NCBI GenBank assembly: GCA_001724265.1
Contig: MEDY01000176.1
Coordinates: forward strand, 1-56,471
DNA length: 56,471 bases
DNA from: Rhizaria sp. SCN 62-66
Lineage: Eukaryota
Direction of reading: 5' to 3'
The notes below the pieces were generated by a model. The model saw nothing but the letters and a program-made list of their open reading frames with translations, ran no database searches and had not been told where the DNA came from. Every line of letters begins with the position of its first letter. Positions within the stretch are counted from its first letter, which is position 1. Of the stretch, positions 785 through 55,717 are shown one piece after another. Both the position numbers and the translations under genes were made by a program.

Positions 785-3700
785 ATGTGGCGTCACATTT
801 TCTTCACACTCTTCACAGTAGTCGCATTCGCTACGGTTGCTCTGGTACGTTCAAAGGAGTCCTCCATCCCTCTTCTTTTCGTCTCCGAGCCGGTTTTCTT
901 TCCTTTGCAAGAAATATGGCATTGTGCTGCGCACACTCATTCTTTTTGTACACACGCCTGTACTGTTTGCTTTTGTTTCTTAACCCGTTGTGCACTCCAC
1001 ACTTGCCTTCAAATGTCCCGCTCTGCCTCTCACCGACTCTCACCAATCGCCTACTTCATTCTCTTTTGCACTCGTCAGGCTCAAACCTCTTCGAACATTG
1101 CAACCCTATCGAGCTACTTGACGGGTAGTACAAGCTACACACTCAATGCCAACTTTGTGTATCCTTCAGGTGCGACTTCCAGCTACGTGTACCTCAAGTC
1201 TTCCGAATCATGGTTCGAGACGTCAAGTTGCTTCATTTACAGGAATACCACGCAAATGGGCAGTTGCAGCTCGGGCGGGGCTCCTACCCAAACTGTTTGC
1301 GAGATCTCTTCTTATACCACGGCGACCCACACGATCTCCTGCACGGGTATCCAAATCCCTCAGGCAACTTCGCAAGCAATGACTGTCGAGCTGAACTCTG
1401 GCACCGCTGTCACTCACACGATCTCTGTTCCGCTCGCCCACGCCGTGCAGTCGTCCTACACTTTTACGACCACAGTCGCCAACTATCTCCTTAACGAGCC
1501 TAACACGATTAGCTTTACGTTTACACTCCTTGATGCCTTCTTGGCCAATCAATATATCCGCTTTGACTTCGACAAGCGGTTCCCGTTTACGACAAAGACG
1601 AGCTCCGACTGCGAGGTGTCGATTGGCGGCACTGCGGCTCAGTTTCAAAGCTTGGCTATGGATCCTGCCGGGGCTGTCAATATTTATGCTGCAACGAACA
1701 TTGCCGTGCTCTCGACGATCCTCTTTGCTTGTAAAGTTACGCCCAACACAACCGTTTCCACGACTGTGGTGCCTGCGTCGGTTGTCTTTCCCCCGAATTA
1801 CAACGTCCCGTATCCCGTTAACAAGCTGCCCATCGACATCAACAGTTACTCGGTGTCCTCCGCCATCTCGGGCTACACCCCCGACACGCGTCACGCTCTC
1901 ACACTGTCCTTTTACTCCCGCGTCGCCACAGCGGCCAACACGGCCTTTTATGTGAATTTCAATGGCCAGGTCACGCCCGTCCTTAACGCCTTCACAGGTG
2001 ATTTCGTCGTCGCCCCCATCTCTCCAGCCACTACGGTTGACGTCGGCTTTGCCACAACCAGGACAGTTTCCAACGCCACGCTTGCGATCACGCTGAAGCA
2101 GGCGTTCCCCGCCGGCCAGCTCGTGTCGTTTACTGCCCAAGTGTATCTCACCGGCGCGTTCGCCAAGGAACTGGGTGCTTTCAACTTTACCCGTCCTTCT
2201 TACCCTGCGATCATCACATCCGTCACGCCGCTCGCGTATGGCGCGCTGACGTACACATCATCCTACGCGCCTGTGATCGAATCCACTACGTACGCTCTGT
2301 CTGACATTGGTAACTTCACCATCACCATTCAGCCACTGCAGCGCTATGCACAGTACGCCGCGTGGACCGTGACGCTCCTCAAGTCACTCAAGTTTAACAG
2401 CGCGTACCCGTGCACTCTTTCCCCGGCACTTGCCGGCACGACGATGACGTTCACGCCCATTACGGGCAATGTTACGGGTCTGGCCGCGATGCCGACGGTG
2501 ATGAAGATCAATTTCGATGCTGTACTTACGGGGTCATACGATGTCTTTACGCCCGTTGAGCTCAGCTGCGGGTTTTATACGCCCGCCAGCGAAGTGGAGA
2601 CGTCGCCGGCAACGATTAGCTTTGAGTGGGCCGCCGGCAATAATGAGATTGTGAGCGCGAGTGTGGCACCATTTCCTGTTCCTATCACGGCCCATGAAAC
2701 TTCAGTGATCAGTGGTGGATTCCTGGTGAATTCACCAGTGTATATTGGACTTGTTTACAAAATTCGGCGTCGTTTGTATATTGGTGACGCTGTCACTATC
2801 ACGTTTGCTTCCGGTATTACTGTTCAAGGTTGCGAATCCGAGGTTGAGCTTGTTGCTGACAACAAGTTCATTTTTGTCATGCCATTTGACTATATTCCGA
2901 TCGAATAGGGTACTTTTATCTGCACGGTCGTCTTCCACACACTCGGCTACACCGGCATCAACATCGCTAATGCCACGTTCCCGGGTTTGTCCCATATGTA
3001 CTGGAACACTACGTTCACCACGCCTATCACGGACTATTCGGCGACCGCGGATGCATTGTCGTACTTACACACGGATGCCGACAACACGATCTCTTTCCAC
3101 TTTCGACATCTGGTCTGGTCGCAGCCCGGTGACGAATGGACCGTCACGATTGATCCGTTGCTGCAGCTCACTGGACCCTGCAGCATGGTCACACCCGCGA
3201 ATTATTCGACGTCGGAGCGCATTGGGACCACTAACTCGGCGACTATCGTCATCGACGATGAGATCGAATTATTCACGGATATTACCATCGCGTGTCCTGT
3301 GAGTAACACGTATGATTTCTTTGACACGTCGCCCGGGTCAATGACCATTGGCGGCCGCACGTTCGCGGCGTCACCCATGCCTAAGGTTCTGCAAAAGTAC
3401 GCCGGTCAGGCCACTCTCGAGTCGTATGTTACCAACGCGCAGACGACGATGACTCTCAATCTTCCATTGCTGCGACCCTATCCTGCTGACAGCACGTTCC
3501 TGTTTGTTTTTAACACCAGCTTCGTGTTCTCGACCAACGCGAGCATCATGTGCACCATTTTGCCAATCGGCAGCTCCAACACGACGCTGCCGCTGACGAT
3601 CGCGGCAGAGACTCCCACGCAGTCCCCCGGCAATGCGCACCAAATCATTACCGTAGGAGTTCCTGGCCTGAAGCTCGACGACGTGCTCAGCTTCTCGTGC

Positions 3701-6700
3701 CCGTTGATGAACCCTGTGTTGGCGACGCTGCCCCACGCGCCGGTGACGGCGACGCTGCTGGGCCACACGTTTGACTTTGATCCGCTGCCGACGTCTATCG
3801 CGGGAATGCTCACGCAGTCATCTGCTCGGCTCTATTCGTACTTGCCTAATGCTACGACGACTCTTGACCTCGAGTTCTTTGTTCTCTCTCCGGTTACGGG
3901 CACCCTTCTTTTCACTTTCGTGATTAACTCCAAGTTTGTTGGCCCCACTTGCGTTGTGAATCAGTGGCCCGGTGACTTTAGCCTCTCCACGACTAGTTCT
4001 ACCGAGTACAAAATCTCACCTGCGTCCACCACTGGCCTCCGCGCTGGTCTCGTGCGCTTGCGCTGCACCGTTACGAATCCGGCTTCGGGTGGCGTCACTA
4101 CTGCGGCTAGCGTGGCCGAGAGCTCATTGGTCATTCGTGGTACGTTGTCCTTTACGCTGCCCCAGGACGCCACGATGCAATACACGTTGACCCCCAGTGT
4201 GACGTCGTATGCGACTCTGTCTGAGCAGAAGCTCACTCTTGAGGCCACACTGCCTGTTGCTACAAAGACGGCGACGGACCTTGTTTTTAAGATCCACAAG
4301 AAGATCACCGTCAAGTACGGCTCGTGCGCGCTGTCTGGTCGCTCTGCCACTGCCGCTGTGGGCATCATCCGCATCACCCACGCGGCCACCACGGGCGTCA
4401 ACGTCAACGACATCACCGTGCGCATTCCATCCGCTGCTAACGCTAATGCGTACTACGTGCTGGCGTGCGATATCACGACACCCGACGGTCCCATCCAGGG
4501 CACTTCGGACGCTTTGGCGACGATCACCCTCGTCACGCTGGACAACACCGCCGTGACGAAGTCGTTTTCCGCGCTTCCGCACGACTTCGAGGCTTACGCG
4601 GCGACGGCGTGGCTGCTGAGTTATTTTGAGCTGATTCAGACGAGTTACTACGTCCAGTTCCGCGCGCTGACCGAAATCCCTGCTGACGTTAATATCACGC
4701 TCGCATTCGACCTCATCCACGTCCAAACGGGCGGCTCGTGCCGCATCTCCACCACGGGGCCCGACCGCGCCGAAGTTGCGGCGCGGTCCGCTGTCGCACA
4801 GAGCACCAACAACGTCGTAACGTTCACCCCTCCACAGAACCTTACAATTCCCTATGGCACTGTGATCAAGCTTCGCTGCCCTGTACGCAACCCGAATCAG
4901 AACCTCGAGGGAACTATCCCGGCCCCCACCATTTCTATCACCAACTCGCAGTACGCCAACGTGGCCTTCACGTCCGCCGCGCTGCCGCATCAGGTTCTCA
5001 CGACGTACGCTTCGCACCCGCAGCTGTTCGTGTCGCGCATGGCCAAGTACTACAGCGGCAAGGCCACGGAGCTCCTGTTCGAGTTCCCGCTCCTCGAGTC
5101 CACGGCTGCGGGCACTGTGTACGCTTTTGACCTCAACGATGGCGTCACGTTCCCGACGGGCGTGGCGGAGCCCTGCGTGGGTAACAATCTCAAGCTCACG
5201 TATGACAGCGAAGACACCCGTGCGATTGACATTGAGCTCAAGACCGCCGTGACGTCGGGCTTCATGTTCTCTCTGCTGTGCCAGATCGTCGCTCCGCCTG
5301 CCACGGTGGCCGCTTTCGTTCCTGCTGAGATGGCTTTTATCGCCAACTCTGCCGCTCAGGTCTCGGTGTTTCCGGCGCTAATCTCGTTCACATCGGCCGA
5401 CTACGCACTTGATGTCAGTATTCAGTCGCTGACGTACGGCGTCACGTCTAAGATGGTCGTATCGTTCCATCTCCTGGACGATTTCTCGGCTAACTCTATC
5501 TTCACACTTGTGCTTAACAGTGGTTTCTCGAGCGGGATCTCGGCCTGCAATTTGCCCGGCGCCGTCACGGCCATGAATGCCACGTCCCGCGGCGTTGCAA
5601 GCCGGTACACGGTTGATTTTATCCTGTCGAGCATTATTCGTGCCGGTAACACGGCTGTGATGACGTGCACCATTGTGAATCCATCCACGACCATTGGTCT
5701 GCCGGACACTCCCTTGCAAGTCATTTTCGACATTCCTGGCGCCAGCTCTCCGCGCACGTTGTCTCACCAGTTCTACATCGACCTCGTGCCTGGTTTCTCT
5801 GGCCGCACTTTGCTGTCTTCGTACAACGTTGACCCTGCTGCCACGCTGACCATTGCACTGTCGTTCCCGGAGCCGATCCAGTCGGGTGTTCTCACGCTCG
5901 CTGTGAGCAATCTTCTCCCGCTGGTCAACACGTCATGCACACTCCTCAAGGATACGCCTTACGCTTCTCTTGTCGCCTTCAGTATGGCTGCGCGCGATGC
6001 CACGTTCGACCCACATTTGGTGTTCCACGACGGCTTCCCGCTCGGTGGCTCGCTCACGATTGCTTGCACTGTGTCGACGACTCCTGGTGTGATCGACAAG
6101 ACCGTTGTTGCGACCGCGGATATGACGCCCAGTGTGGTGTTCTCGATCTCCGACCTACCGTTCCCTGTGCTGGAGACTGCGTCGAGTACGACTGAGGTTG
6201 CATCGATCGTTGAGCACACGCGCACTGTGTTGACCAACTCGATGTGGCTTGTTCGGTCGATCCCCGTCAAGACGGTCTTTTCGATTGTGATGCCGTCCAT
6301 CATCTTTACCTTCGTCGATGCGTGCACTTTCACGAACTACAACACCAAGGCTAGCGTTACGGCGGGCAATTTCACATACACGCCCACCAGCGATGGTGAC
6401 ACCAAGGTTTAGGTCCTTCTCGCGGCGCTGTCCGCGGGTACTGCGATTGATCTGGTCTGCATCGTCGGTGTTCCTGAATCCGTGTCCGACGGCGCTGTGC
6501 TCGAATACGGCCCCGCGATCCTCACCCCTCCACAGGGCACTGTCTTTTCGATCTTAATTGACCCTCTGCCGCACGCATCTGTGCCGGCTCCTGCGACTCC
6601 TTCGCCGTATTTTATCGACACACTGCGTCTTAGTCAGCAGGCGACCATGAATCTGCGTTTCCTTGTCGTTGACCGCATTTTTGCAAACACGGCTGTCACC

Positions 6701-9700
6701 ATCACTGCGAACTCACAGTTTGACACCCTGATCTGCACGCAAATCGCGACTCTGGACGCACCGAGCGCTGTGATCCGTTCATCCGGCAATGAGAGTCTGG
6801 CTGTGACTGCCTCGTTTGTTAACGGTGTTGCTGTCGGCACGGAACTCGCGTTCTCGTGCACAGTGTTCCTGTCGGAGACGGCGCTGCCGGCTAATGCTCT
6901 TGTGGCAGCCACTGTGTCGTATCCCTACGTCGCTGTTAGCAGCACCAACAAGATCCAGAATAGCGTGCGTACCGCACAGTATTCGCTGCCCAGCAACCTC
7001 GAGGCTGCGTACGTGTTTGATGTCACTGTGGGTTCGTTCCTGACTGCCAAGCCCACAGTGCTGCAGCTTGCAGTGCGTGTGCTCGACACGTATATCACGA
7101 CGGCCACGAGCCCGATTGATTTAAGCTTCAACACTGCGTTTGTCATTGCCTCCAACGCTGAGTGTAGCAGTCCCGCGCTTGCGGCTAACGCTACGATCAT
7201 GAACAACAACGTCGCGCTGAATCTCAATTCGCAGGTTCAACTCGGTGATATTGTCATTATCACTTGTCCCATCACCACACCCGCAGCGATTGGCGCGCTC
7301 ACCGGGCCCGCAGCGAAGCTTGAGAACGGCAACGCTATTACGTCGGATGTGGCTTTCACAGACCTCGAGCACGGCTTTGTCACCGGTTTCGTCACTACGT
7401 CCGACATCAAGTCGTTCATTGCCTCACAGACGACGCAGCTGCTGTTGAGCTTCTGGTTGTACGAGCCGCTTTTGGCCGATGCACAATCCTCCACGGCTAA
7501 GTTTACTTTGCCTATTTTGAATGACGGCTTCGCTAGCATCATGAGCTGCAAGGTCACTGACTCGACGGGCTCCACCGCGCGCTTCCTCAACATCGAATCC
7601 ACGGATCGCCAGATCACCTTCGACATTTACCCCGAGGAGCGCTCAGGCTTGCAGATCTTCATCGACTGCGTTGTTGTGAATAAAGACCAGGCATCTGCAG
7701 GTTCGGCGAGTCGCGAGCTCGGCATTGGTGGGATTGGTATTTGGGAAATCCCATTCCCTGATCTCATCAATGAACCGCAGACGAAGTACACTGCGCAGCA
7801 CGTTCTGCACTCGTTCATCGAGTCTGCGAACACAACGCTTGAGGTGGGCTTTGATATGCTTGAAGAATTTGCAATTGGCAAGACAATCTCCTATGAGGTT
7901 GTGAACGTCTTCACCATCGTTGCCAGCGGTACGGTGCCCTCATGCACGGTTAACTACCCGGAGTCGTTTGTTCTCTCGCTCTCGGGTACACACACGATTG
8001 TGTTGCGTGCTGTGGAGATCCTGCCTGCTGGCTCTCGTATTGAGCTCACATGTAATGTGGTGAACCCTCAGGCCGCACTATCGCCGACCGGTTTTGTTGT
8101 CACGATCCGTACGACGCCCGTATCGGAGAGCCGTCTCTTCAATTCTGAAGTGCTCGCACACCCCATTGTTTCTGCCTACACTGGCACACTGACGGCGGAC
8201 TCGCTCCTGCTCAGTGAAGCTACGGTGATTGAGGCTCATTTTGACGCCCTTGAAGGATTCTCAAGCGCTGGTTATGGTGACACTATCTTATTTTCGTATT
8301 ACTATGGCTTCATCGCCGCGTCGAGCAACTGCTCGCTGTCTTATACAGACGCCGAGCTCGAAGAAGTCGCTGTTGCAGAGCTGTCCCTCGACGGCGCCGC
8401 CGATATCAGCGCCAGGATCACCATCGACGTTCCCGCAGGCACGACTCTGGCATTCCGGTGCAAGCTTATGGCTCCCTCTGTGTCATTCGATGTCGCGATT
8501 CTTACGGCTATTTTCACGCTGAACACCGCACTGCGAACACTGGTTTTCCCTGATACGGCTGCTCCGTTCTCGAATCAGTACACATTTTCATCCCAGCTTA
8601 GCTCCTATTACCCAAGCGTTGCAGCCACCCTCACGCTGCGGTCTGTCATCATGGAGTTGATTGATGGAGCGACGTTCGAGATCGAGCTCACTGAAGTATT
8701 TGCTTCTGTTTCCACATGCACCGCGCTCCCAACCCCCTCGTCAAAGTCGGGTTCATCGCGCGCGCATAGTTTTAACTATAATTCCATCTCCGCTGGCACT
8801 CAGCTTGTGATCACGTGCAGCGTCACAAATCCCGCTTCGTCATTAGATATTTCGCCCGGTCTCATTATTTTCGACTCTCCTGCATTGGGCTCCAATCAAG
8901 AACAATATTTTGCCACGTTGCCACACTTCATCACAAATGATTTTGCTGTTGCAGTACGTCTCGAGTCATTTTACGCTAACCGTGTGAACACGAAGTACAC
9001 TTTGTCGTTCATGCTGCTGATGGAGTGGAATGTGGGCACTGTCGTGACGTTCAATCCCCATTATGGCTTTCATTCCACGTTCGACACGCTCACTTGCACG
9101 ATGGATGGCACTAGTACGCTTTCTATCTCCACACTGAAGGAGTTACGTTTCACTGTACTCCAGGCCTTTGTAGCTGGTTTCCGTGTCACAATGAACTGTA
9201 TTGTTACAACGCCCGCTGTGGGTATTGATATCAACGTCCCACCGGCAGAAGTTTCGGGTGCGATGCTTCTTTGGACGCAAAGCGGATCGATAGTTAGCTT
9301 CCCGTTCCCTGCGTTCTCACGATCATCAACCGTTTCGAGCATTAATGGCGAAGTCACACTTGACTCCTACTATGTCGATGAGCCGGCCGTGATGACATTT
9401 AGCATGTGGCTTCCCGAGGACTTGCTTAAAACTGATTTCTTGTCTTTTAAGTTTGACTCTCGCGTGGCCATTACTGCAGGCGCTACTTGCGGTGTTGGTG
9501 GCACGACTGCGCTCAGTGCAACCACTTATGTGTCTGGCAACGACGCATCTGTTGTGGTTGTGATCGATGACGATAACGATGTCGCGATTCTTGCTGGTGA
9601 ACCTTTCACCATTTCGTGCAATATCTTGATGCCATCGACGAGTAACGTGAAGATCGGCAACACTACGGCATTAAGCCAGACTATTTATGGTCAAAGCAGG

Positions 9701-12700
9701 GTGATTGTGTTTAACCAGTTCTTGTACCCGATTCTATCCAAGCTTGAAGCATCATCGCGCCAGTACTCATACATCAATGATGATGTGTCGTACTTTGTCA
9801 TTACGTTCCGCACGAACAAGTTGCTGACCAAGGGTACAACTATCCAGTGGAATCCAAATCCGAATCAGTTCGCAAACGACATGACCTGCCAACTTAAGCG
9901 CCACTGGGACGATGATGAGCTCAATATCGGCACTTCATCAGCTGGGTTTTATGTTGATATCGCGGTAGAGGAAACCGTTAACGCTGCCATCACGCTGTAC
10001 ATTATCTGCGATGTAACGATCAAATCTGACCCAATGATGTCGTCACTGATGTTGTCGGATTTGCAGGTCGGTAATGAGCCTGCGACGCCGCTGTCAACTT
10101 TGTTGATGTATCCAGTGTCTTCGAACCCTGTGACGTTCACGACGCAATTTTTCGCCACCAAGTCGACGACGGTGATCCAATTCACTTACAAGCTGACCGA
10201 GTATCTCCAGTTGGGCGACACCGTCACGGTGACCCTTCACTCTGGCTTTAAGATTGACGCTGAGCTTCCCTCGTCTATGTCTGTTTCTGGCACTGATATG
10301 ACTCTAGTAGATAAGGGCAGCAACACTCTTAAGCTCGTCACCACCCGCGAGCTTGCGCCGAACGAGAATGCTGACTTCTTCATCTCCCTTATCGCCCCTG
10401 AGTCGCATGATGTCTTTAACGACGGTCTCAAAATCGTGCGCTTTGATTTTGGCACTGTGGACTCTTACGGCTACAAACCTCGTTGGGGTGAAACCAGCTC
10501 CTTCACCGGCGGCAACGTGTTCCGTGATGAGAACCTGAAGGTGTCGTTCGCGTCGTACCTTTCAACAGCATCGAGTGTTGTGACGACTTTTAGCTTCACC
10601 GTGACCGACCCCTTCACGGCGACAACCGCGACACGGTATGAACTCATCCTTTTTGGTCGCGAATCTGCGTCTAACTTTCCGACTATTTCATGTAGCGGTT
10701 TTGCCGCAACGAACTCTTCAGTCCTGGGCAGTTTATCACAGGCGAGTATGAGTACGATGATTAATGTTTATTTCCAGACAGGCTACGTTTATGTACCTGG
10801 TACGACGTATTCTTTCACAGCCAACTGCGTTCTATACCCCATTGTTGCTACGGCCAAGCAGTATCTCTTCGAGCGCGGCACCTTCTAGCGCCATAGCGAG
10901 CTTTCGCGCAATGTTGTCTTGTCGCCGCTGTCTCACCCGATCGTGTCGGCTTACCCGGCGGTCCTGTCCACGTCGAGCTATATTGCCGGCGACACGAACG
11001 TCACATTGACGGTCGATTTCTGGGCTGTGGAGCCCTTCTGTACATCGTGCACACTTGACACATGCGACAGTTGCTCTGACTACGCCATGTTTACATTGGG
11101 CTCAACGCTTACAGGTGACATCTTAGCCAACTGCAATCTCAAGTACACGATCCTGGACCGTGCAGAGACGACTCTGCCCGTGTCATGCTCGTCGTGCGGC
11201 CTCTCCGACGTAAACTTTAACTTCACCGAGTATGTCCCTGTGGAGACAAAGCTCACGCTCACGTGCACTGGTATTACTGTGCCTGCGACCGAGTTCCCTG
11301 CACGTGATGCTGTCCTTGTGCCTGGCAGCATGGTTCTTAGTGGCCGTACCCTTAAGTCTATGGGTGTGGAGCTCTTTAAGATCGACCCGCTGCCTTATAA
11401 CTTCACCACCGACTTCGCGACTACGGCGTCGCTATCGTCTTACCGTGTTGGTGCACATTCTGTCATGACGCTGTCCTGGCAACTGCCACGGTCCGAGACC
11501 ACGAGTGCGACGCGCAGTCTCGAGCTCACACAAGGATACTTCACTGGGATCGATGACTGTGTATTGAGCCCCACTTACGATGTCATTTCGTTGTCTTCCT
11601 CCGATTCCACGATCATGATGTCTAATTTCATCGGTGCTGCGGGTGACAAGTTCACTCTCACTTGTAATGTCAAGACTGCAGCGGTCACATTAGATAAGAC
11701 AGTTGCCACCCTCAACATTGGTGGCGATGAGCTCACGTTTGTGCTGCCGCAGGAGATTGTGCAGCGCTATGAGACGAGTATGACGCTGTCTGATGCTACT
11801 GTGGGCGACAACTCTACTGCCGTCTTCACGCTCACTCCTTTTGTTGATATGGATGGTTTCGTCGCTGTCATCAGTTCGCCCCTCTTCGCATCGGGCTCTT
11901 GTCAGTCTTCGGCGTTTGCTGGGTCAATTGCATTTAATGCCACGACACACGAGCTTAAGGCTACGTTTGATTCTGCTCCCGCCAATGACCCTCTTTCCAT
12001 CACATGCACATTTGTGGTTGGCCCTGCCTATGATTACTCCCTTGCCATTGTGTTCACGCACAGCTCAATGCTCGAAGCTGAGACGTACTACTTCCCTGAG
12101 CTGGTGTCTGCGGTCGATGCTATTCCTATTGATGTGCGTCTGTCTTCGAAGCACGCACAGTCCGCGTCTAACCTGCGGCTTACTTTTACTGCTCCGCTGC
12201 TGCTCATGGATGACTACTCCACTGGACTCGTCATCAAGTCACAGTTCACCGAGATCTCGGCCTGTTTTAGTGATGACATGACAATCGATCTCAACGATGA
12301 CGATGTGTTGCTCATGTTCCTGCCGAACGTTATCCGCGGAGACCAAGTACGCGTCGACTGCAACGTGACCAACTCTGCAGTGGGTGCCGCTTTTGACATC
12401 AAGGGTTCTTTCATCGGTGACGGTAAGCCTAAAGTCAGCTATGTGGGCAAGCTTGTCGAACGCGTCGCCGCCGTCACCGGCGCTACTTCGCGCGAGTCCC
12501 TTGTTGCTGACGCCACGACTGTGTTCAACGTCATGTTTACCGCGACGGAGAATCTCGATGGACAGATCCTGCGTATTTACACCCAGGACGCATTTAGCTC
12601 TTTTGTGTCTAACTCGTGCACCGTCACGCGGAAAACTGTGGTCCCGGACACGAACCCAGTGCAGTACACTCAGGCTGCCGCGGGCTCGGTTGCGCTAGTT

Positions 12701-15700
12701 CCGTATTTCGATGACGTTGGTATCGCGACGACATTCACTGCCGTCGCCGTCAAGGACTCGGAGCTCACCATCACGTGCACTGTCGTAAATTCGCCAGTGC
12801 CTGTGGCTAACGTGACTGCGTATTCGTACTTTTCGCTCGACGGCCGTTCCTCGTTCCCGCTCGATCTGCCCCTGCTTGAGGTCACCACGTCGTATGTCGT
12901 TGCCACTTTCTTCCTCGAGAACAAGCGCGCCCTCCGCGCGGACACAGGCTTCACGATCTCTTTCATGCCCTCGCTACCACCCGCTGGATACACCCTGGAG
13001 CTGCCGCTGCAGCCGGTGTTTACGACCGTCGACGCCACGAGCTGTGAACTGTCACAGGCGTCGGTCTGGCCCGTTGAGAACCCCGATTCTTCGTCTACGG
13101 TTAATCTCGTTGGTACTGTCACTTACAATGCCACCACGTTTGGGCTGTCGGTGCACTTCCGCTCGACCGCGGTCAAGTGGGAGCTTGTCACACTGAAGTG
13201 CCGTGGCACTCTTGCTGCCGCGAGTGCTGCTCAGACTGTGTACGCGCAGTTCACCCCCGCCTCGACGAACAGCACTCTGCCAGTATTTGACCTCAGGGCT
13301 GAGGTGATGCAGATCATCCCCGAGATTGTCATCACACCCACGACGACGAACCACTACGTCAATGAGTCGAGCTCTATTGCGGTTCCTATCACAATCACGG
13401 AGACGACGATGGAGGGATGGATGATCACAATTTCGACGACGAATACGTTTATTACAGTTTCGAACTGCTACGTCACGGTGCCCGGAGTGTCTGTCAACGG
13501 CACCGCGTCTGATCCCGTTTCTGCCGGTACTGTTACGGTCGATGGAACCACGATTAAGGCGACGCTCAACGATCAAGCGCGGAAGGATGCCGTGGTGACT
13601 GTGTCGTGCTTCGTGCAAAACTATCTGCGCAAGAGCAACATTCGCTGGCTTGGCGTTGCCTCAAAAACTGGCTCGACCTCGTTTGAGTACGGCTTCACCG
13701 CGCACGACATTCTCTATCGGCCGCCTACATTTGATGCGCTGCTGTCGTCATCTATTTACGACGACTATCTGGTGACGCTAACGATGACGACGCTGCTGAC
13801 TTTGCCGCTCGAGATTGGACAAGAGCTCTCGCTCAACATGGAGACGCTTTTCCCTGGCCGCGCAACTGGTAAGCAGTGCTCGATCAAGTTTGGCTCGGCC
13901 GCCACGCGTTCACGCACTATCGGCACTGATGCCCTCGTGTTTACAGTTGATTTCTTCGACGTCCGCGACATCAATACGCTTGTTGAGATAATCTGCCGTG
14001 GTATGACGAACCCGAAGACTGCGGCCGAGGTCGTTCCCATCACGGGCATGCTTGCGGGCGAAGTTCCGCTGTCAATTAGCGTTAAGAACACGTTCGTTAC
14101 CACCACTGTGCCTGGCGCTGTGGTTGCTAGCTCTTACACTTCTGGCACCACCAATGTGGAGCTTGTCTATGAGTTTGTTACACAACGCGACCTCAATGGT
14201 TACGCGGTCCGCATTGTGCCGCTCCGCCGCTTTAACCTTACCACGGGCTGCGCAGCGTTGAATCTGGCGTCCACGTTCACACTGCCCACGGTCGCCGCGG
14301 GCGAGGAGCGCATCATGGAGGTGACGATTGGCGCCACCACGAACATTGGTGACACAGTCAAGATTAGCTGCGTTGTCAATCTCGGCGAGCCGTCCAACGC
14401 GTCAACGTATACGCTATCCTTCACTAAGACGAGCAGCAAGGCGGTACCTGTCGCGGTCACCATGCGCTATGTGGTGCCCGCGCCCGTGTTTGTAGGTTCG
14501 CTGTCGTCGTCGATCTTGGGTGACACCAGTGTTGTGTCCAAGATCAGTGCCCCGATCAGGTTCCCCATTGCGTCGGGTAACACGATCAACTTCAACTACC
14601 AGGACCAGTTCACTCTCTCGAGCGACGTGCGGTGCGCGATTAGCATTAACAATGCGTCGACGTCGCTCACGGTCACGTCATCAACGGCTATCTCGTACAC
14701 ATTCACCTCAGCCCAGGCCAACCTCACCGTGATTGGCCTTGATTGCGTTGGTCTTCGCCTTCCTACGGCGGCATTTACAATCAGCGGTGTAGTCTCAACG
14801 ACTGAGGCGCAGTATAGCTACGTGTACTTCTCGTTTGCGTACACCAATACCCTCGTCACTGCACATGCGCTCGGCAACACCACTCTCAGCACGTACCTGC
14901 CTTCGCAGTCGGGAGTCACCATGGTGGCTACGTTCAAGGCTCTTAAGGATCTCTCGGGATTCGCTTTTGTGTTGTCTGCGACGAACAGGATGTATATTAA
15001 CTCATGTGAATCGATTCCGAGCCTGCTGACTGGCGCTTCGAACACAGCGGAGACAAGCAACATCACACTCACCTTCAGTAGTTCCACGACCGTGAACCAG
15101 GAGATTGCAATCCAGTGCGTTGTGCGCACACTCGCCGCGTCGGCCAAGAGCAACATTATTGGCAACTATTACCTCGGTTCCACATCTGCCGCCGGCTCTG
15201 GCACGGTGCAGTTCGAGTTGGCCACCATTGTGTACTCGTACACTGGCACCGTTACGCAGTCGTCCAATGTGCAGGGTGAGATCAACACTCTCGCATTTAC
15301 GTTCTCCGCGCTTGATGACCTTACAAGTCGCACCCTTACACTCGATTTGGCCACAGTCGCTACTACCGTGACGTCTTGTGACGTACCAGAGACGTTAGTA
15401 AGCCATGCCGCTACTATCAACGGCACTGTGGTGAGCTTCGTGTTCACGGGGTTCACAACGAGTCTTAGTGTCGTCTTCACCTGCGTTGTAATCAACTCCG
15501 TCGCCCGCTCTGGCTCCGAGCTCCGCGCCGTCGTCACCCACCCCACTTCGCTTGCCGCTGCGCTGCCGGTCTACTTCTCCCACAGCGGGCTTATCGCGCG
15601 CGCGCTCACGGACCGCCTTGTCCAGTATGAGTCCTTCGCCGCCGCTGGTTCGCGCACGACTCTCACGCTCAAGTTGCGGCCTAACTTCATCATCACGTCG

Positions 15701-18700
15701 ACGATGTTGATTCGCTTCCCGCTGCCCGCGCACATCATCACTGCGGCGTCGCAGTGGCCGATCACGTGCACGGTCAAGGTTGGAACCGCGGGTGCTGTCG
15801 CCGTCACGCCCATCACCGGCACGAAGTTCTCCTTCACTGGCGTCAGCAGCGGCGTCGCCGGCGTTCTCATCGAGTTTAACTGCCTCAACTTCCCGCTGCC
15901 CGCGACGCCGATGGCTAACGCATCTGAGCTGCTCCTGGCTGTCGTGACCCCTGCTGTCGCGGCTAACACGACTGCCGGCACGGCCGCCGTGGCCGAGCAA
16001 GTTCTCGTCTCCCACACCACGACCGTGCCCGCGTACCCCGCTATCGTGGCTTCGGCCTTCGGCGGTGAGACGGCGATTGTGACTTACGACGAGCCCTACC
16101 CTAACGCACGCACGTCGGTTACCTTCACCACCAAGCCTTCGCTGACCTCTGCTGTTACCGTGGGCTGGGCGATCTCGGCCGAGCTTGCCTTCGAGGTGAC
16201 TCTGCACGCGACTCTCGCCATGGCGTGCACACTCACCGACGGCACTGTCTCGATCACGGGCACGACCAGTGCCACGCGCTCCGCGTCATCGGGTGTGATT
16301 AGCATCTCTTGGGCCGCCGCCTCAGCCGGCACGCTCGACGCGTCCAAGGCGATGCGCTTCCGTTGCACTAATGTCGTCATGCCCGCCGGTCTGCGCTCTG
16401 CCGCTTACTACGGCTCTCTGTCGGCCGGTCCCGCGCCGCTGCGTGCATCGCACTACACGTCGGAGGCGATCGTGTCAGCGCAGCTCGCGGGCCTCTTTGC
16501 GAGCTTCTCGCCGAACATTGTGGGTACCGCCACTGCCGCGTACACCATTAATAGCGTTGGTGTCGACCTCATTGCCGGTAACACTCTTGTCGTGCCCGTG
16601 CCTGAGGGCACGACGCTGGGTCCCTCCGGCGCCGTCGTGTGCCGCGTCGGCACGAGCAACGCCTTCTCTGCGACTCTGCAGACGACGCTGTCACGCGTTC
16701 TGGCTACGGTCCCGCAGAGCGCGTCCGCCAGCAAGACGGACTCCTTCAACTGCACTGGCCTCGCGCCGCCGCGGTCCACGCTCGCGAGTATCAGCACCAC
16801 GAACCAGCTTGCAATTTACCGCTCTCAGGATCTTGATGCAGAGTTTGCTCACGGCTCCGTGACGTCGCCTGTGATTGTCGCGCGCGAGATCACGACTGCT
16901 TCCGACCTCAACACAGTCTCTGTCGACCCCACTACGAGCACGGCTGTGTTTGTTATGCAGGGCTTCTCGTTCTCGCTTATCCCGTCGTCGCGCATCACCA
17001 TCTCAGTCCCCGCCGACCTCACGGTGTCCACGTGCACCATGCTCGGTAGCGACCGCGCCACTGCGCTCGCTGACGTCGCTGTGACTGCAGTGACTTCCAG
17101 TAGCCTTGTTGTCTTCACGTTTGCGTCCAGCGTCGCAACTGCGATTCCCGCGCACCAAGCTGTCGTCAATAGCACAGACTACATTTATGTTGTGCGCTGC
17201 ATTAACGCTAACGTGCCGGCGTACATCGTCGCTCCTTCGAGCACACTCACGACGTCCCTGTACTTCACATTCACGGATAAGCTTAGCTCAGCCCCCGCCA
17301 CTCGCTTCCTGGGCGTCGCGGCGCCCGACATGGGTACTGTCGCCGTCAACACGATGCCGTGGCCGTCGACGCAGGGCTCGCTTGTCATCACGTGGAGCAA
17401 CCACAGCTTCTCGCTCACTGCTGGTGACGCTATTTCTGTGTCGTTCACCAATAGTACCGCACTGCTGTTTGACACTCAGCATAACTCATGCGCCGTCCGT
17501 GGCACGTCTGTCACTGCACTCGTCACGCAGTCCACTAGCACTGGCTTTGTTCTCACGGTCATGGGCGCCGTGCCGGCTGCGATGGGCACGACGTTCATGC
17601 TCACGTGCTCGCACGTTACCACCGCAACAGTGCTGGGCCAGGAGCCCGCCACGGCCTCGTCTTCACTGAGTGTTTTGCGTCTCAACAACGCGGCCCAAGT
17701 TAAGGCCACGACCGCTAAGGTCACGTTCCCTGTGCTTGTCACGCGCCCCTTGTCGATGACGCTCACGGCTGGACTTGTCACGCCGTCGAGCTTCTCCTCC
17801 GCTTCGGGCACGCTCAATATGACTTTGCGTGCGTCTGACACACTGCCGCCTGGCGCACAGCTCGTCTTCCCGCTCCCCACTAACATGTGGACTGTGACGG
17901 CGTCTTCGTGCACGGGCTCCATTGCAGGTGCTGTCGTCGCATCGTCTAACGGTGCGAACACCAACTTTGTGTACTCGTTCTACAACGTGCTGCCTGCTGC
18001 CACCACATTCACGCTGTCGTGCACCACCGCTTCATCGGCTACTGTGTTCCGCCCGTCGTCATCGGTTATTGTGTCTGTCACAGCGGACGCCACCACAAAC
18101 GGTACCACCACACTGACTGTGCCCGCTGTCGTTGGCACCATCGGCACGCCCGCAGATGTTGTACTCTCGGCGCCGCGCGTTGGCGCTCTGACCAACATTA
18201 CTGTGCGCCTTCCCTCCATCGCCGCTCCGCTGGCGTCCGCCTCGATCGCTATCGGTCTCCCCGCTGGCACATCGCGCACGACCTCGGCCGCCTGCACGCT
18301 CACGCCGCGCGTCGGCGAGACCCCAGTTACGACCGTCTCGCTCTCGGGTTTCACTGTGACATCGAACACGACCGCGTTTACTACTAAGTTGACGCTTGCG
18401 ATCTCTGGCACCATGACCACAGGCACGTCGCTCACGCTCTTTTGCACGGGATTCCGCGCCCCGCTCGCCGTCGCCGCGGCGTCCAACACCACGCTCGAGG
18501 CCATCGCCACGCAGGGCGGCGCGGCCTCGGATGCCGGCCAGATCGCCGCGCGCACTCAGCTGATCTCCGCGGGCGTCACGGCCTTCCCCAACGCCGCGGC
18601 CACATTCTCCTTCGGCGGCACTGCGGGCAGCACGTCGACTCTGTCGGCTAGCTTATCCGCGATTGGCTTTGATCTCCCGATCAACTCGGTGCTGACTGTT

Positions 18701-20518
18701 GCGGTGCCACCCGGCGTGACACTCGCGGCCGGCACCAGCGGCACGGCATGCGTGTTTGATGATACCGTTCCTGTCGTTGTTTCGATTGACTCAACCACGA
18801 ACCTGGTGTCGTTCAACTTCCAGTCCGCGGTGACGGCGCGGACCGGCACCACGATGCTGGCACTTGAGTGCATTGCGGCTTTCGTGCTGCCTTCGGAGGA
18901 GATCGTGCGCACCTCGGCCGAGGTCATCTTGTACTCGCCCACGGGCCAGGCCAACTTGCTGACGCCGCTGCTGACTGCCCAGGCGCCCTTCACGGGCATC
19001 AAGGGCGCCACGCTGCAGGTCGAGATTGCCGCCGTCAACGCACAGGTCAACGTTTCCACGTCGCTGCGCTTCAACATCCTGCCGATGACTGTGAATGCGG
19101 CTGCGGGCGATTCGCTTATCATGGTTGCGCCCATACGTTTCACGTACGTTGCTAACGCTAACAACATGACGACAGCGTGCTTGCTTTCGACGTCGTCGCA
19201 GGCCGTCGTGCGTCTGACGATTGTGGCGAACCCTTCTGACAGCACTGTCTTGTACACGCTGCTCTTTGTCTCTGCCGCCAATCTCCGTGGCACGACTGCG
19301 TCTCAGGTCACATGCAGTAACATTCGCACCCCCTCCGCGGCTGTTGCCGAGGCCCGCGGGCTTGCTACGCTCAAGTCATCCGCCGGCGCGGTCCGCGGCT
19401 CGGGCACCACGAGTGCCATCTTCTCGCCCATCATCGCCGCGGCTTTCGCGACGCAGTGGAGTCGTATCATCCCGCAGTCCACCATCGCCGGTTCCGACTA
19501 CGGCATGCTGACCGTGCTGCTGTCACCGCTGACGTCCGCACTGGGTCTCGGTAGCACGTTCATCGTGACTCTGCCGCCCACATGGTCCATCACGCCCAAC
19601 GCTATCACCTGCGCCGGATCGTTCGGCAACGGCAACCGCCAGTCGGCGACGCTTACCTTCACGACGTACGCGCCCACGGTGGTTGACGCCGCCAACAAGG
19701 TGCTGCGTGTGTCGGCGCCGACGATGCAGTTCAAGCCCACCGACAGCAAGCTTCGTATCTTCTGCGACAATGCGGTTCGCGTGCCTGCCGTGGCGACGGC
19801 TGCGGTGACGGGCCCGTTCGTGTCGATTATCGACGCTAGTAACAATCCGCTGCTGCAGGCGCTGAACGTGGAGATTCCGGCGATCACTGCGACGGCTGTT
19901 TCGGTCAACTATCTCACCTTTACGGTGCAGTTTTACTCCGCGACCAGTTCGCTGTCATCCGATGACATTCGTGCGCTCACCGTTATCTTTGGCAACATCG
20001 CTGAAATCCCGCTTGACAACGTCTTTGTGCGGAGTCAGGCCGTGTCGTCTTCTCGCTCTTTGGCCGCCGGCTTCAGCGAAGGCCTCGCAATTGGGCTCCA
20101 TGGCACGGGTGGCGTGATCCCGCTTGATGTCAACATGGTGATTGTGCCGGTGGCAGACCACAAGAACAGCATCGAGGATCTGTATGACATGGTTTCGCAG
20201 CGGTCGTCGACGCTGCTCCAGAGCATGAACTCCGTCACAGCGCACAACGCGCAGACGATTGCCGATGTTAAGGAGACGGCGTTCCCGGCCACCTGCGCCA
20301 ACGGCGTCAAGGACAACACCGAGACTGACATTGATTGTGGTGGCAGCTCGTGCCTGCCGTGCCTGGCGACCAAGGCATGCTCTGCTACCTCTGACTGTCA
20401 CGTTGGTACTTGCACGGGCGGCTACTGCACTGGTAAGACCAGTGCTGCGGCCGGACTTACCGTCACCGCTACCACCATCGTGGCCGCGCTTGTCGCGATG
20501 ATTGCTCTCCTCTTGTAA
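785..20518 (+). CDS. Giant (~6,499 aa) predicted secreted, GPI-anchored surface protein of tandem ~130-145 aa Cys-paired beta-rich repeats; exons 785-844 and 1079-20518; contains 3 in-frame TAG codons
   Basis: ORF-track pieces 785..2908, 2987..6412, 6482..10888 and 10919..20518 share one frame, each separated by a single TAG with no other stop in the gaps; the final stop is TAA (20516-20518). Splicing 845-1078 gives signal peptide MWRHIFFTLFTVVAFATVALA|Q. The C-terminus is a Cys-rich module plus a hydrophobic tail. Confidence 0.85.
845..1078 (+). other. Spliceosomal intron, 234 nt, phase 0
   Basis: CTG|GTACGT donor, pyrimidine-rich body, CTCGTCAG|GCT acceptor; removal yields a clean signal peptide cleavage site (ALA-Q). 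Confidence 0.85.
2906..2908 (+). other. In-frame TAG #1, inferred sense codon
   Basis: ...DYIPIE*GTFICTVVFH...; the repeat unit's second Cys (FIC.V) lies just downstream and the frame stays open. Confidence 0.85.
6410..6412 (+). other. In-frame TAG #2, inferred sense codon
   Basis: ...DGDTKV*VLLAALSAGTAIDLVCIVG...; the AG..I.L.C.V repeat motif follows in frame. Confidence 0.85.
10886..10888 (+). other. In-frame TAG #3, inferred sense codon
   Basis: ...LFERGTF*RHSELSRNVVLSPLSHPIVSAY...; the LSHPIVSAY linker matches LAHPIVSAY of an earlier repeat. Confidence 0.85.
20291..20518 (+). other. C-terminal Cys-rich module (C.NG.KD..ETDIDCGG..C..C....C.....DC....C....C) and GPI-anchor-like signal
   Basis: Translation TCANGVKDNTETDIDCGGSSCLPCLATKACSATSDCHVGTCTGGYC then TSAAAGLTVTATTIVAALVAMIALLL-stop: small residues followed by a terminal hydrophobic stretch with no cytosolic tail. 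Confidence 0.75.
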
Positions 20519-22951: not shown

Positions 22952-23516
22952 TTACATGGGCACTCCGGCCGCGTCGTCCTCCTCCTCGTCCTCGCCTTCC
23001 TCCGCAATGGGGCCCGCCGCCGCCGTCGCCGCCGACCCGCCGGGCGTGAGCCCCCCAGCCGCACTGCCGCTGCCGCTGCCGCTGCTGGGCGAGACAGGCG
23101 ACGCGTTGCCACCATTGCCGTGACCGTGGCCGCCGCTGTGCGCGCGCGCGACGCCGGGCTTGGCGCCAGGCAGCACGATGACGGGCGCGGCCGAGAGGCG
23201 CGCGTCGCGAGCTTGCACGAACTGGCTCTGCGCGGGCGCGCCGGGGCCCAGCACGAAGCCCGCGGTGGCGGCCGCGGCGCCTGCGGCGGCGACGGCGGCG
23301 GCGGGCTCGCACACGGCGGCGGCGCGCGCAAAGGCGTTGCCAATGTAGACGTTGCCGACCTTGCTGCTGACGCCGGAGCTGTTGTTGCTGCCGCCGGGGC
23401 CCGCGAGCGCGAGCTCCACGTCGCCAGAGCCCGCGCCGGCGGCATCGTGGCGCTGGCCGGCGTAGGCCTTGCTGCGGGGGCTGGCCGAGCCGGCCTTGGC
23501 GGTGGCCGCGGCGCCG

Positions 23517-23553
<37 letters not shown>

Positions 23554-27785: not shown

Positions 27786-29225
27786 ATGTCTTACTCTGCT
27801 AGTACCTTGTCGTCGTCCTCAGCGGCCGGCAGCGGCACCCGCCAGCTGCCTGTGCGCGGTGTCACCGACGCCGCCATCGACACGTGCAACATCATGACGT
27901 GGCACACCGTCAACCCACAGCCGCCTGCGATCCCGCCGAACGTGCTCCCACCGTCCTTTGAGCTGGTTGAGTTCGGCGAGCTCGCTGTGGCGCTGCAGGG
28001 CAGCTCGACGGCGCTCAAGCTCCAGGCCCTGGCGCGGCTGATGTCGCTGTTGCAGCACCCCACGACGCTGCCGCGTCTCATTGCCAACGCGCAGAAGGTC
28101 TTTTCCGAGGGCGCCGCTACGGGTACCGTTGACGAGGACACGCTCAAGGCCTCGCTGGCGGACCGTCTGATTGCGGCCGGCCCCGACGGTGCGGCCCCAG
28201 CGTCGGGCCACCTGCCTGTGCGGCACAGTGGGCCGCACTACGCGGGCGACCTCTTCCAGGACGTCGTCGACACGCTCGAGGACGCCAGCGCGGACTGCCG
28301 CGCGCGCGCCGCTGCCGTGCTGCGAGTCGCCACCGCCGCGCCGCTAGGCCTCGAGTTCGCGGTCAAAGTGGACATCTTCCCCCGGCTGATGAAGCTGTCC
28401 GAGGACCCGTCCGCGGACTGCCGCGCGGGCCTCTACGCAGTGCTGCTGAACCTCACCAAGGCGCCCAACAGCACCGCACTCGACCGCATGCTCAAGCGCG
28501 GCCTCATCGCCACGCTCGTGACGGCGGCGGGGGCCGAGACCGCGCCCGCGGTCACGGAGGCGCTCCTGGCCGTGCTCGCCTCCGCGGTGCGGCGGTCGAC
28601 CGCGCTCGCGGCCCCTGTGCCCGCCGCCGCAGCGCCAGGCGCGGCCCCCGCGGCGCGCGGCGCGACGGAGCTCTCCGCGGAGGCCGAGACCGCGCTGGCC
28701 CTGGCAGTCTCGCTGCTGTCCTCATCGGATGACGCGGGGGTCTGGGCGGGCGCGGCGCGCGTCATCGCCGCCGCCGCGCTCGCGGCCAAGGGGCAGAACC
28801 ACGCCGTGGCGCTGGGCGCGGCCCCGCTGCTGTGCGCGGCGCTGGCGAGCGCGGTGCCGGCCGTGCGCGAGGCCGCCGCAGGGGCGCTCATGCAGGTGAC
28901 CGTGAGCCGGAGCGGCAAGGTCGCCGTCACATAGTGCGGCGGCGTCGCAGCGCTCTGGGCGGTCGTCACCGGCGTCCAGCAGCAGCAGCAGGGGGCGAGC
29001 GGCGCCTAGGGCGCGGCTGCGGTGGGCCAGGAGGCCGGTGTGACGGTGGCGCACGCGCTGGGGGCGTTGACCAACACGGCGGAGCTTCCGGCCAGCAAGG
29101 AGTGCGGCGTCATCACGGCGCCGGAGACGGCCGAGTTCCTCCGCAGGCTCATCGCCAGCACTAAGAGGGAGCTGGTGAAGCGCGCCGCCAAGAACGCGCT
29201 TGCGCAGTTTCTCTGGACGCCTTGA
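27786..29225 (+). CDS. RSPH14: Radial spoke head 14 / RTDR1-like armadillo-repeat protein (~479 aa) with 2 in-frame TAG codons
   Basis: ARM/HEAT repeats. Segments LSEDPSADCRAGLY, VREAAAGALMQVTV..GK, ALTNTAELP and the terminal KRAAKNALAQFLWTP match remembered RSPH14 features ([48 protein letters not shown]). ORFs 27762..28934 and 29022..29225 are in one frame; final stop TGA. Confidence 0.82.
28932..28934 (+). other. In-frame TAG #4, inferred sense codon
   Basis: SGKVAVT*CGGVAALW: sits at the polar position of the ARM helix-1 motif (typical AVVEAGGV). Confidence 0.85.
29007..29009 (+). other. In-frame TAG #5, inferred sense codon
   Basis: GVQQQQQGASGA*GAAAVGQEAG: a Gln/Ala/Gly low-complexity linker before the conserved RSPH14-like C-terminus. 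Confidence 0.8.
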
Positions 29226-29749
29226 TGGGCGAGGTGTAAGAGCAAATATGAGCAAAGTGAGGTCTTTGCAGTTCAGGTGGAGTTTACTTAGATTCGGATA
29301 TCAGGGCCTGTATATTCACATTTTTCTGAATAAACACAATGTATAGTTTTGAATCAAGTTGAAGAGTTAATTATTAAGTCATCATTCAGAAACAAGCATG
29401 TATATGTTGTTTGATAGACGTGGATTAATTTCGTCCACAAACGCAGATTCTGAACTGACCTTCTCGAAGACTCTGGAGGAGTCGGGAAGAATAACGGCAC
29501 TTTGCGTGCTCCAGCGTGCACATCATAACTTTTATTAAAAACGAAAGCAAACACCAGTAATCGTCCAATATTGAGCCAACTAATAATTTACTCACAACGG
29601 ATTCTTCTCGACTATTTTTTCCCACGCAGTTACCCCCAAACACACAACACACACGTCAACTGATCTTGTCTGTCTTGTCTTGCTCACAACTCAGAGCCTT
29701 CTTGCTTCTGCCTACGCACACCCAGCACACACTCACAACACACAACACA

Positions 29750-35268: not shown

Positions 35269-35299
<31 letters not shown>

Positions 35300-39558: not shown

Positions 39559-39593
<35 letters not shown>

Positions 39594-39880
39594 TACGACG
39601 AAGACAGCGACGACGACGGCGCCGACGCTGCCGCTGCGGCCGCAAGCGGGGACCATTTAGCGCTCGTGGGCGCCGACGCCGCCGCGGCCGCGGCCGCGCT
39701 GGCGTTCATGGCCTCGACTGAGGCCGCGCTGCAGCCCACCGCGGCGGCAGCACGCGCGCTGCTACTCGCCTCCGCCTCCGCCGCCGCAGCAGCCAGCGAC
39801 AACACCAGCGCGAACTACAGCAGCAGCGGCAACAACAGCACCGTCGCGTCGCTGATCCTCAGCGAGAGCTACAGCGACGC

Positions 39881-39922
<42 letters not shown>

Positions 39923-50028: not shown

Positions 50029-50059
<31 letters not shown>

Positions 50060-54412: not shown

Positions 54413-55717
54413 ATGTCAGCGTCCGCCGTGTTCATCATGGACGCCAAGGGGAAGATCATCATTTCGCGGAACTACCGCGGCGATGTCCCCATGACGACCG
54501 CCGAGCGCTTCGCCCGAATTCTCAACGAGGAGGAGGACAGCCGTCTCAAGCCCGTCATCTACGACGAAGGCAACTCGTTTGTCTACATCACCCACAGCAA
54601 CCTCATCCTCATGGCGATGACCAAGAAGAACGCCAACCCCCTGGTGATGCTTTCGTTCCTCTCCTCCCTCGTCGACGTCCTCGTCGAGTACTTCAAGGAG
54701 CTTAACGAGGAGTCGCTCCGCGACAACTTCGTCGTCACCTATGAGCTGCTCGACGAAGTTATGGACTTCGGCTTCCCCCAGTCCACCGACGCCAACATCC
54801 TCAAGGAGTTCATCTGCGTCACGGAGCGCCACCAGTTCAAGCGCTCGCAGCAGGCCGCGCCCACGGTTCCCGTCGCCATGACGCAGCGCGTGTCGTGGCG
54901 CAAGGAGGGCATCGTGCACAAGAAGAACGAGGTCTTCCTGGACGTCGTCGAGCGCCTTAACCTCCTCGTCGGCAGCAACGGCAACGTGCTCCGCAGCGAG
55001 ATCGACGGCGTGCTTAAGATGCGCACCTTCCTGACGGGCATGCCCGAGCTCAAGCTCGGCCTCAATGACAAGATCCTCATGGACGCTCGCGCGCGCGCCA
55101 TCGGCGGCGAGGGTGCTGCGTCGCGCAACAAGTCGGTTGAGATGGAGGACATTCGCTTCCACCAGTGTGTGCAGCTGGGCCGGTTCGAGAACGACCGCAC
55201 GATCAGCTTCATCCCGCCTGACGGCGACTTCGACCTTATGTCGTACCGCCTCAACACGCAGGTGCGCCCGCTCATCTGGGTCGAGGCCCACGTCGAGCCG
55301 CACTCGTCGTCGCGCGTCGAGTACCTCGTCAAGATCAAGGCCAACTACAAGCGCCGCTCGGCCGCCAACAACGTCGAGGTGATCATCCCCGTCCCCAGCG
55401 ACGCTGACTCGCCGGTGTTCAAGACGAGCACGGGCAAGGCCGAGTACCACCCCGAGAAGGACTGCGTGGTGTGGAAGATCAAGACGCTGCAGGGCCAGAA
55501 GGAGTTTATGATGCGCGCGCAGTTGGGCCTGCCGTCCGTGACCGCGAATGACCCAACCAAGGCGCGGCCGCCGATCAAGGTCTCGTTCGAGATCCCCTAC
55601 TTCACCGTGTCGGGCATCCAGGTGCGCTACCTCAAGATCACGGAGCAGAGCCGCTATCAGGCGCTGCCGTGGGTGCGCTACATCACCAAGAACGGCGACT
55701 ACGAGGTCCGCTTCTGA
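54413..55717 (+). CDS. AP1M1: AP-1 adaptor complex medium (mu1) subunit (434 aa)
   Basis: MSASAVFIMDAKGKIIISRNYRGD, EESLRDNFVVTYELLDEVMDFGFPQ, VSWRKEGI..KKNEVFLDV, FHQCV, ISFIPPDG.F.LMSYR, YQALPWVRYIT.NGDY; stop TGA. Confidence 0.96.
   Translation: MSASAVFIMDAKGKIIISRNYRGDVPMTTAERFARILNEEEDSRLKPVIYDEGNSFVYITHSNLILMAMTKKNANPLVMLSFLSSLVDVLVEYFKELNEESLRDNFVVTYELLDEVMDFGFPQSTDANILKEFICVTERHQFKRSQQAAPTVPVAMTQRVSWRKEGIVHKKNEVFLDVVERLNLLVGSNGNVLRSEIDGVLKMRTFLTGMPELKLGLNDKILMDARARAIGGEGAASRNKSVEMEDIRFHQCVQLGRFENDRTISFIPPDGDFDLMSYRLNTQVRPLIWVEAHVEPHSSSRVEYLVKIKANYKRRSAANNVEVIIPVPSDADSPVFKTSTGKAEYHPEKDCVVWKIKTLQGQKEFMMRAQLGLPSVTANDPTKARPPIKVSFEIPYFTVSGIQVRYLKITEQSRYQALPWVRYITKNGDYEVRF

Follow-up and report, generated by a model that had tools for sequence, protein, structure and literature searches.

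The metagenome contig MEDY01000176.1, a 56,471-base stretch of DNA from an uncultured eukaryote that was analysed at its full length (hereafter the window) and contains no ambiguous base (0 N), carries two genes interrupted by five in-frame TAG codons. Overall, we regard a genetic code that uses UAG as a sense codon and has UAA and UGA as the sole stops as the best single explanation of these codons, and as a probable one. The window would then most likely record a new example, in sparse use, of a kind of code change that is known but rare, and it may be at an early stage. A preliminary description of the window had proposed such a UAG-only code. The proposal stands as the best explanation, carried by the reality of the TAGs, by conservation and by the lack of TAG at 13 gene ends; it is not proven, however, and the exclusive occurrence of TAG among the in-frame stop codons is weaker evidence than had been assumed.

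Thirteen genes were modelled in the window (Table 1), and TAG interrupts two of them, a giant surface-protein gene (TAG 1 to TAG 3) and an ARM-repeat gene (TAG 4 and TAG 5). In the nine genes whose frames were tallied, 12,534 codons in all, TAG occurs five times and TAA and TGA never, which puts the in-frame frequency of TAG at about 0.4 per thousand codons; the 7,056 codons of the two TAG-bearing genes contain no frameshift, no TAA and no TGA. The modelled genes themselves end in TAA (eight) or TGA (five) and never in TAG, with the ends of the AP-complex mu subunit and the ARM protein, and the anchor of the giant protein, fixed by homology. For a TAG share of 20-35% of stops, the probability of finding TAG at none of 13 ends is 0.055 to 0.004. 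Much of the preliminary description is borne out by these results: its five in-frame TAGs were all verified, each where it had been placed, in two genes without frameshift, TAA or TGA; its count of gene ends came out the same on re-modelling; its probability for those ends (0.75^13 = 0.024) was reproduced; and its claim that protein motifs run across the TAGs agrees with the repeat envelopes and the colinear alignment described below.

When TAG is read through, a single frame stays open for 6,608 codons at positions 692..20518, and the protein that starts at the ATG at 785 has 6,577 residues. The frame holds three TAGs and no TAA or TGA, and it cannot be a product of chance, because each of the five remaining frames contains between 97 and 571 stops; its codon usage scores 0.48 bits per codon. 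The protein opens with a signal-peptide-like segment, continues through 42 repeats and a Cys-rich stalk, and closes at its C-terminus with a hydrophobic anchor, a tail that is glycosylphosphatidylinositol (GPI)-like or transmembrane. The repeats are about 135 amino acids long, and a pair of Cys residues, with spacings of about 40 and about 90 residues, is kept in all 42. Since the signal peptide precedes TAG 1 and the membrane anchor lies 5,869 codons further on, this architecture is whole only when all three TAGs are read through, and the envelopes of the repeat-domain hidden Markov model (HMM) span residues 708, 1876 and 3368, where the TAGs stand. The only relatives of the giant protein found among 5.8 billion proteins were its own pieces, a search with the third piece returning itself alone, and no form of 1,031-3,282 amino acids crossing TAG 1 or TAG 2 was found, although neither result is proof of absence.

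In the ARM-repeat gene, the frame from 27786 to 29222 holds two TAGs and no TAA or TGA. Its protein has 32 relatives at E<=1e-3, and with one homolog, P0004, it is 60% identical across 96% of its length in an alignment that runs over both TAGs, colinear and with no change of frame, to the last residue. Identity to P0004 is 223/382 (58%) before TAG 4, 11/24 between the TAGs and 51/71 (72%) after TAG 5, where the difference between 72% and 58% reflects long-term, not recent, constraint; judged by this comparison, the best-conserved part of the protein is the one that sits downstream of both TAGs. Three residues are invariant in a 13-sequence alignment: K378, P435 and the C-terminal P479. Pfam reports no family for the protein at its cutoff. 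The Atlas model of P0004 matches radial spoke head 14 clusters, with template-modelling (TM) scores of 0.63-0.67 by query over residues 46-455, and on the strength of this structural match the ARM gene is probably flagellar.

The interruptions recur in independent data. Sequencing runs from bioreactors, wastewater and activated sludge, dated 2015 to 2025 and belonging to several studies, contain near-identical DNA, and contigs from four other runs were aligned to positions 10500-30400, a span that takes in TAG 3 to TAG 5. In X3, a run of a different study, a DNA contig covering 28636-29956 has both ARM TAGs and 0 differences from the window. So does a contig from a polyA metatranscriptome (X5), which covers 28885-29133 with 0 differences and 0 gaps, is unspliced, and has over the ARM TAG region a depth like that of neighbouring genes; neither X5 nor a further run, X6, gives cover at 10886. 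No contig joint that skips a TAG was found. In public protein collections the ARM gene appears as pieces of 382 and 67 amino acids, and the giant gene as pieces of 707, 1,138, 1,413-1,468 and 3,143 amino acids. Variant pieces of the giant protein, one with L455H and another with two substitutions, break at the same three places, so that several haplotypes share the TAG sites; the L455H piece ends at TAG 1, and TAG 2 is where pieces in other assemblies begin or stop.

At TAG 3 the populations differ. A 2025 run from another study (X4) yields an 8.8-kb contig that aligns to 10500-16206 with three differences, one of which, 10888 G>C at a depth of 7.56 of 7.56, turns TAG into TAC (Tyr); in X3 the G is kept (0 of 4.7). 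In total, X4 shows 5 differences in 14,404 aligned bases. The TAG/TAC polymorphism fits a synonymous pair if TAG means Tyr, it fits selection against a costly, leaky codon, and it fits a young nonsense allele.

Several observations weigh against UAG as a sense codon. The sample is tiny: two genes share the five codons, and organisms can often dispense with genes of either kind, one being for a surface protein and the other for an accessory protein of the flagellum. Under the codon usage of the window, 1,798 of the 2,715 one-base routes to a stop yield TAG (0.66), and the probability that five of five in-frame stops are TAG under plain nonsense mutation is 0.13; because 66% of random nonsense mutations give TAG, the TAG-only pattern is weak evidence taken alone. 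The other modelled genes, with about 5,500 codons, hold no TAG where about 2.2 are expected (p ~0.11), the AP mu gene of a close relative (L001, 89% identical) is free of in-frame TAGs and has TGA as its stop, and P0004 is likewise without TAG. None of the five TAGs falls on a conserved residue, and the columns disagree, being hydrophobic at site 2 and mostly acidic or basic at site 4. By our arithmetic, the chance that one X4 difference would land on the sole TAG covered is about 0.001; because one did, the TAG codons appear to turn over faster than their surroundings, and they look unstable, like young nonsense alleles. The other DNA-level strain differences in the giant gene (M4736L, V4816L and S5316I) are all non-synonymous, so that the gene is either under diversifying selection or weakly constrained. 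Finally, the RNA evidence is a single contig, in which minor variants would be hidden, from a library that may contain DNA at the ARM locus.

These points invite the reading that the code is standard and that all five TAGs genuinely end translation early, as fixed or segregating alleles of two dispensable genes, with the lack of TAG at 13 gene ends due to the small sample. The TAG/TAC polymorphism at 10886-10888 resembles a young nonsense allele, TAG is the commonest product expected of nonsense mutation here, the strain differences in the giant gene all change the protein, and neither the housekeeping genes nor the orthologs of relatives have TAG. We nonetheless consider premature stops an unlikely explanation. 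Two of the 13 genes would have been hit more than once (three times and twice), and yet 21 kb show no frameshift, TAA or TGA. Nonsense routes make up 2.4% of point mutations, so that five nonsense codons acquired by drift would imply about 200 substitutions and, by our estimate, several frameshifting indels in ~21 kb, and none were seen. The part of the ARM protein beyond the supposed stops is its best conserved and keeps every invariant residue, and all repeats after TAG 1 in the giant protein retain their Cys pair. The same breaks occur in several haplotypes, in samples from 2015 to 2025 and in three studies; the contig from the RNA library covers the ARM TAG region at a neighbour-like depth; and the gene ends have a p of ~0.004-0.055. 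Thus pseudogenization is disfavoured because other lesions are lacking, because the ARM protein is conserved after its TAGs, and because the sites persist across haplotypes, studies and a decade.

Alternatively, UAG could be a leaky stop, passed often enough because eRF1 is weakened or because near-cognate tRNAs (Tyr, Gln or Lys) are abundant; the reassignment would then be unfinished and UAG ambiguous. In-frame TAG is indeed very rare, it stands in variable positions only, in columns that disagree on the residue, one TAG is swapped with TAC as selection against a costly codon would have it, and TAG is avoided at gene ends; moreover, a tyrosine tRNA is described in one report as a read-through-inducing tRNA (PMC8136774). 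Three such stops in series in a gene of 6,577 codons would, however, multiply the losses, and the five sites share neither a read-through context nor a structure. The bases at +4 after TAG 1-5 are G, G, C, T and G, and downstream RNA folds have z-scores of -1.53 to +0.43 at the TAG sites versus -1.34 to +1.12 at five control sites; a programmed, site-specific read-through signal is unlikely because no common context or downstream structure marks the sites. We judge leaky termination to be decidedly improbable as the full account, while recognizing that the present data cannot separate a leaky stop from a dedicated tRNA.

A third possibility is A-to-I editing of the mRNA, perhaps at one life stage, which would change UAG to UGG (Trp). 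In filamentous ascomycetes restorative editing of premature UAGs keeps pseudogene-like genes functional (PMC4817773, PMC10776026), and the ascomycete system prefers UAG, with one of its genes bearing two UAGs in tandem (PMC4817773, PMC11156358, PMC10776026). The genes of the window, too, are pseudogene-like on account of in-frame TAGs, never TAA, with two in one gene. In those fungi, however, TAG is a normal stop, whereas it is found at none of the 13 ends here, a deficit for which editing would not account; and the X5 contig keeps TAG at both ARM sites with 0 differences, although it is one contig and editing could be stage-specific. The condensin-II CAP-H2 and radial-spoke-like flagellar proteins of the window are, on general knowledge of the lineages, not filamentous-ascomycete gene content, and we take the organism not to be one. 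Editing of this kind is very unlikely.

Least credible of all, and barely worth entertaining, is an artefact or a mis-modelled gene structure: the source is a metagenome contig and one TAG, at 37050, does lie in an intron, but assembly or sequencing errors are rejected by independent assemblies that agree base for base, and very short spliced introns by the flanks of the TAGs, which are conserved coding sequence of exon-like G+C, by the unspliced X5 contig, and by the inferred introns of the window, which are 124-213 nt long, AT-rich and begin with GTAC.

Returning to UAG as a sense codon, we propose that an ordinary tRNA, altered at one point of its anticodon so as to carry CUA, would decode UAG, and that eRF1 would no longer compete well at this codon. 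The rarity of UAG, its poorly conserved positions and the one polymorphic site would point to a young or weakly used assignment. Within the window ARAGORN finds no tRNA gene and Rfam no RNA family, and no eRF1 gene is among the window genes by Pfam and scans of open reading frames (ORFs).

No amino acid can be assigned to UAG, because no TAG stands at a strongly conserved residue. The repeat column of site 2 reads F9 L9 V8 A5 I3 T2 Y2 P1 in the 39 other repeats, with Gln, Glu and Lys at 0, and the column of site 4 reads E4 D2 K2 A1 H1 V1 P1 in 12 homologs; the columns of sites 1, 3 and 5 are variable. Log-odds from the repeat profile, summed over the three sites of the giant protein, single out no residue. 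The sole direct hint is the TAC allele at site 3, which hints at Tyr. Tyr would seem tolerable in both kinds of column; a hydrophobic or aromatic residue would fit site 2, and Gln and Glu would fit site 4 better.

One specific version of the UAG-only code can be set out, tentatively and as rather unlikely in its full detail: the organism may be a non-ciliate wastewater flagellate early in a reassignment of UAG alone to Tyr, of a kind not yet described, through a change of the tRNA-Tyr anticodon from GUA to CUA. With no more confidence than that, we suggest that UAG would in this early Tyr code have gone from gene ends (0/13), would be rare, would be confined to tolerant positions, and would still alternate with TAC between populations whose sampling dates lie a decade apart.

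A change in the meaning of UAG with UAA kept as a stop is known from only a few lineages: a rhizarian, a fornicate and certain phyllopharyngean ciliates (PMC5304391, PMC11687900). In the rhizarian exLh, of the coprophilic Sainouroidea, UAG means Leu: 384 in-frame UAGs lie in 71 genes, 82 of 86 hyperconserved sites are Leu, and the gene ends comprise 56 UAA and 15 UGA (Panek et al. 2017, PMC5304391). The window resembles exLh in its in-frame UAG, in having UAA and UGA as sole terminators with UAA in the majority, and in coming from a non-ciliate protist, and a coprophilic habitat is not far from sewage. It differs in that 5 UAGs occur in 13 genes, none of them at a conserved Leu, and Leu is common at site 2 only (9/39). 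In the fornicate Iotanema spirale UAG means Gln and UAA and UGA are stops (PMC5304391). There, too, UAG alone is reassigned and the other two stops are kept; unlike the organism of the window, however, Iotanema is an anaerobic metamonad, and Gln occurs in 0/39 repeats in the site-2 column. The ferrochelatase gene and the GC-rich genome presumably point away from an anaerobic metamonad.

Among phyllopharyngean ciliates one lineage reads UAG as Leu and two others read it as Gln, UAA is the preferred stop, and suppressor tRNAs are present (McGowan et al. 2024, PMC11687900). As in the window, UAG alone is reassigned, UAA is the main stop and the case comes from metagenome-type data, whereas UAG is widespread there and rare here. 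A 56-kb contig with many genes, high G+C at third codon positions (GC3) and introns of the lengths seen here is, in our judgement, unlike ciliate macronuclear DNA. In the Mesodinium-type code both UAA and UAG mean Tyr; the meaning of UAG would be shared if the TAG/TAC hint is right, but TAA, reassigned in that code, is the main stop here. A full-text search of the literature, in which Tyr-specific codes were little searched, found beyond the known cases no UAG-only reassignment in a wastewater protist or a GC-rich non-ciliate protist.

Codes in which UAG alone has changed are relevant to the question of why this codon and UAA mostly shift in meaning as a pair, and a further independent case, from a GC-rich, intron-poor and recurrent wastewater protist, would widen a small sample. 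If the code is confirmed, the low frequency of the codon and the TAG/TAC polymorphism would make an early stage of reassignment observable in natural populations, a stage that those who argue for codon capture or for an ambiguous intermediate have mostly had to infer. There is a practical consequence as well: gene callers split genes at each TAG, so that the proteome of the organism is mis-annotated in public collections.

The organism is an uncultured, GC-rich and intron-poor protist of wastewater and bioreactors, and is probably flagellated. The preliminary description had called it GC-rich, intron-containing and probably flagellated; eight genes have a coding GC3 of 0.81-0.94 and the giant gene has one of 0.68, four introns are inferred, and the radial-spoke-14-like fold of P0004 is in keeping with a flagellum. 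The positions of all modelled genes, TAG codons and inferred introns are collected in Table 1; five of the 13 genes are ORFs accepted on coding-like codon usage.

Table 1. Modelled genes, in-frame TAG codons and inferred introns of the window (Pfam marks a gene with a Pfam match; single gene coordinates give the first base of the stop codon).
Feature	Position	Strand	Remarks
Giant surface-protein gene	785..20518	+	single exon, 6,577 codons + TAA
TAG 1	2906-2908	+	residue 708; repeat-HMM match state, variable column
TAG 2	6410-6412	+	residue 1876; hydrophobic repeat column
TAG 3	10886-10888	+	residue 3368; variable column; TAC (Tyr) in another population
PMCA-type P-type ATPase	22952	-	TAA; Pfam
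ARM-repeat gene, radial-spoke-head-14-like	27786..29225	+	479 codons + TGA
TAG 4	28932-28934	+	residue 383; flanked by SGKVAV and GGVAALWAVV, which P0004 also conserves
TAG 5	29007-29009	+	residue 408; variable loop after poly-Q insertion
Unnamed ORF	31304	+	TAA; coding-like codon usage
E2-like ORF	31878	-	TGA
Condensin-II CAP-H2	37701	+	TGA; Pfam
Adenylate-kinase-like	40731	+	TAA; Pfam
Membrane protein	41825	+	TAA
Short-chain dehydrogenase	42803	-	TAA; Pfam
Membrane protein	45094	-	TAA
Ferrochelatase	46445	-	TGA; Pfam
Low-complexity protein	53803	+	TAA
AP-complex mu subunit	55715	+	TGA; Pfam
Inferred intron	37018-37212	+	sequence features
Inferred intron	50335-50481		sequence features
Inferred intron	~47394-47182	-	sequence features
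Inferred intron	~46985-46862	-	sequence features

The four introns, predicted from features of the DNA alone, have 5' ends that would read GTACGT (two), GTACGA (one) and GTACTC (one). In two of the four the length is a multiple of three, so that the flanking exons share one frame. A GTAC start of the 5' splice site is unusual and might aid placement of the organism. The TAG at 37050 is neither a stop nor a sense codon, because it lies inside the inferred 195-nt intron of the CAP-H2 gene, which runs GTACGT...GCGCAG and is marked by a drop in G+C; the TAG of the ferrochelatase ORF is formed by the last three bases of an inferred intron.

TAA is the main stop (8/13) despite a coding GC3 of about 0.9, and the stop is followed by G in nine of the 13 genes and by a purine in 11.

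A scan of genome contigs with AP mu gave 30 pattern matches and 0 relatives, and a metagenome scan with the ARM alignment gave 116 pattern matches and 0 relatives, and missed even the contig of P0004, so that the collection lacks these samples. The metagenome scan with AP mu gave 40 loci, of which one is close, L001, a contig of 1,964 nt with an identity of 89% in AP mu. Another AP mu homolog, L013:76-1356, on a metagenome contig with a G+C of 0.48, is interrupted in frame by two TAGs and by a single TAA, which stands at the conserved Gln of GYQALPWVRY; it belongs to a different organism, apparently with a code of the UAR = Gln type.

The dispersed repeats found in the window are of low complexity only. 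Runs of GAC/GTC codons (poly-Asp) and of GCC codons (poly-Ala) recur in unrelated genes (23483-23565, 39553-39642 and 37395-37458), accompanied by His-Gly and poly-Gln tracts, and such low-complexity inserts appear to be a general habit of this genome.

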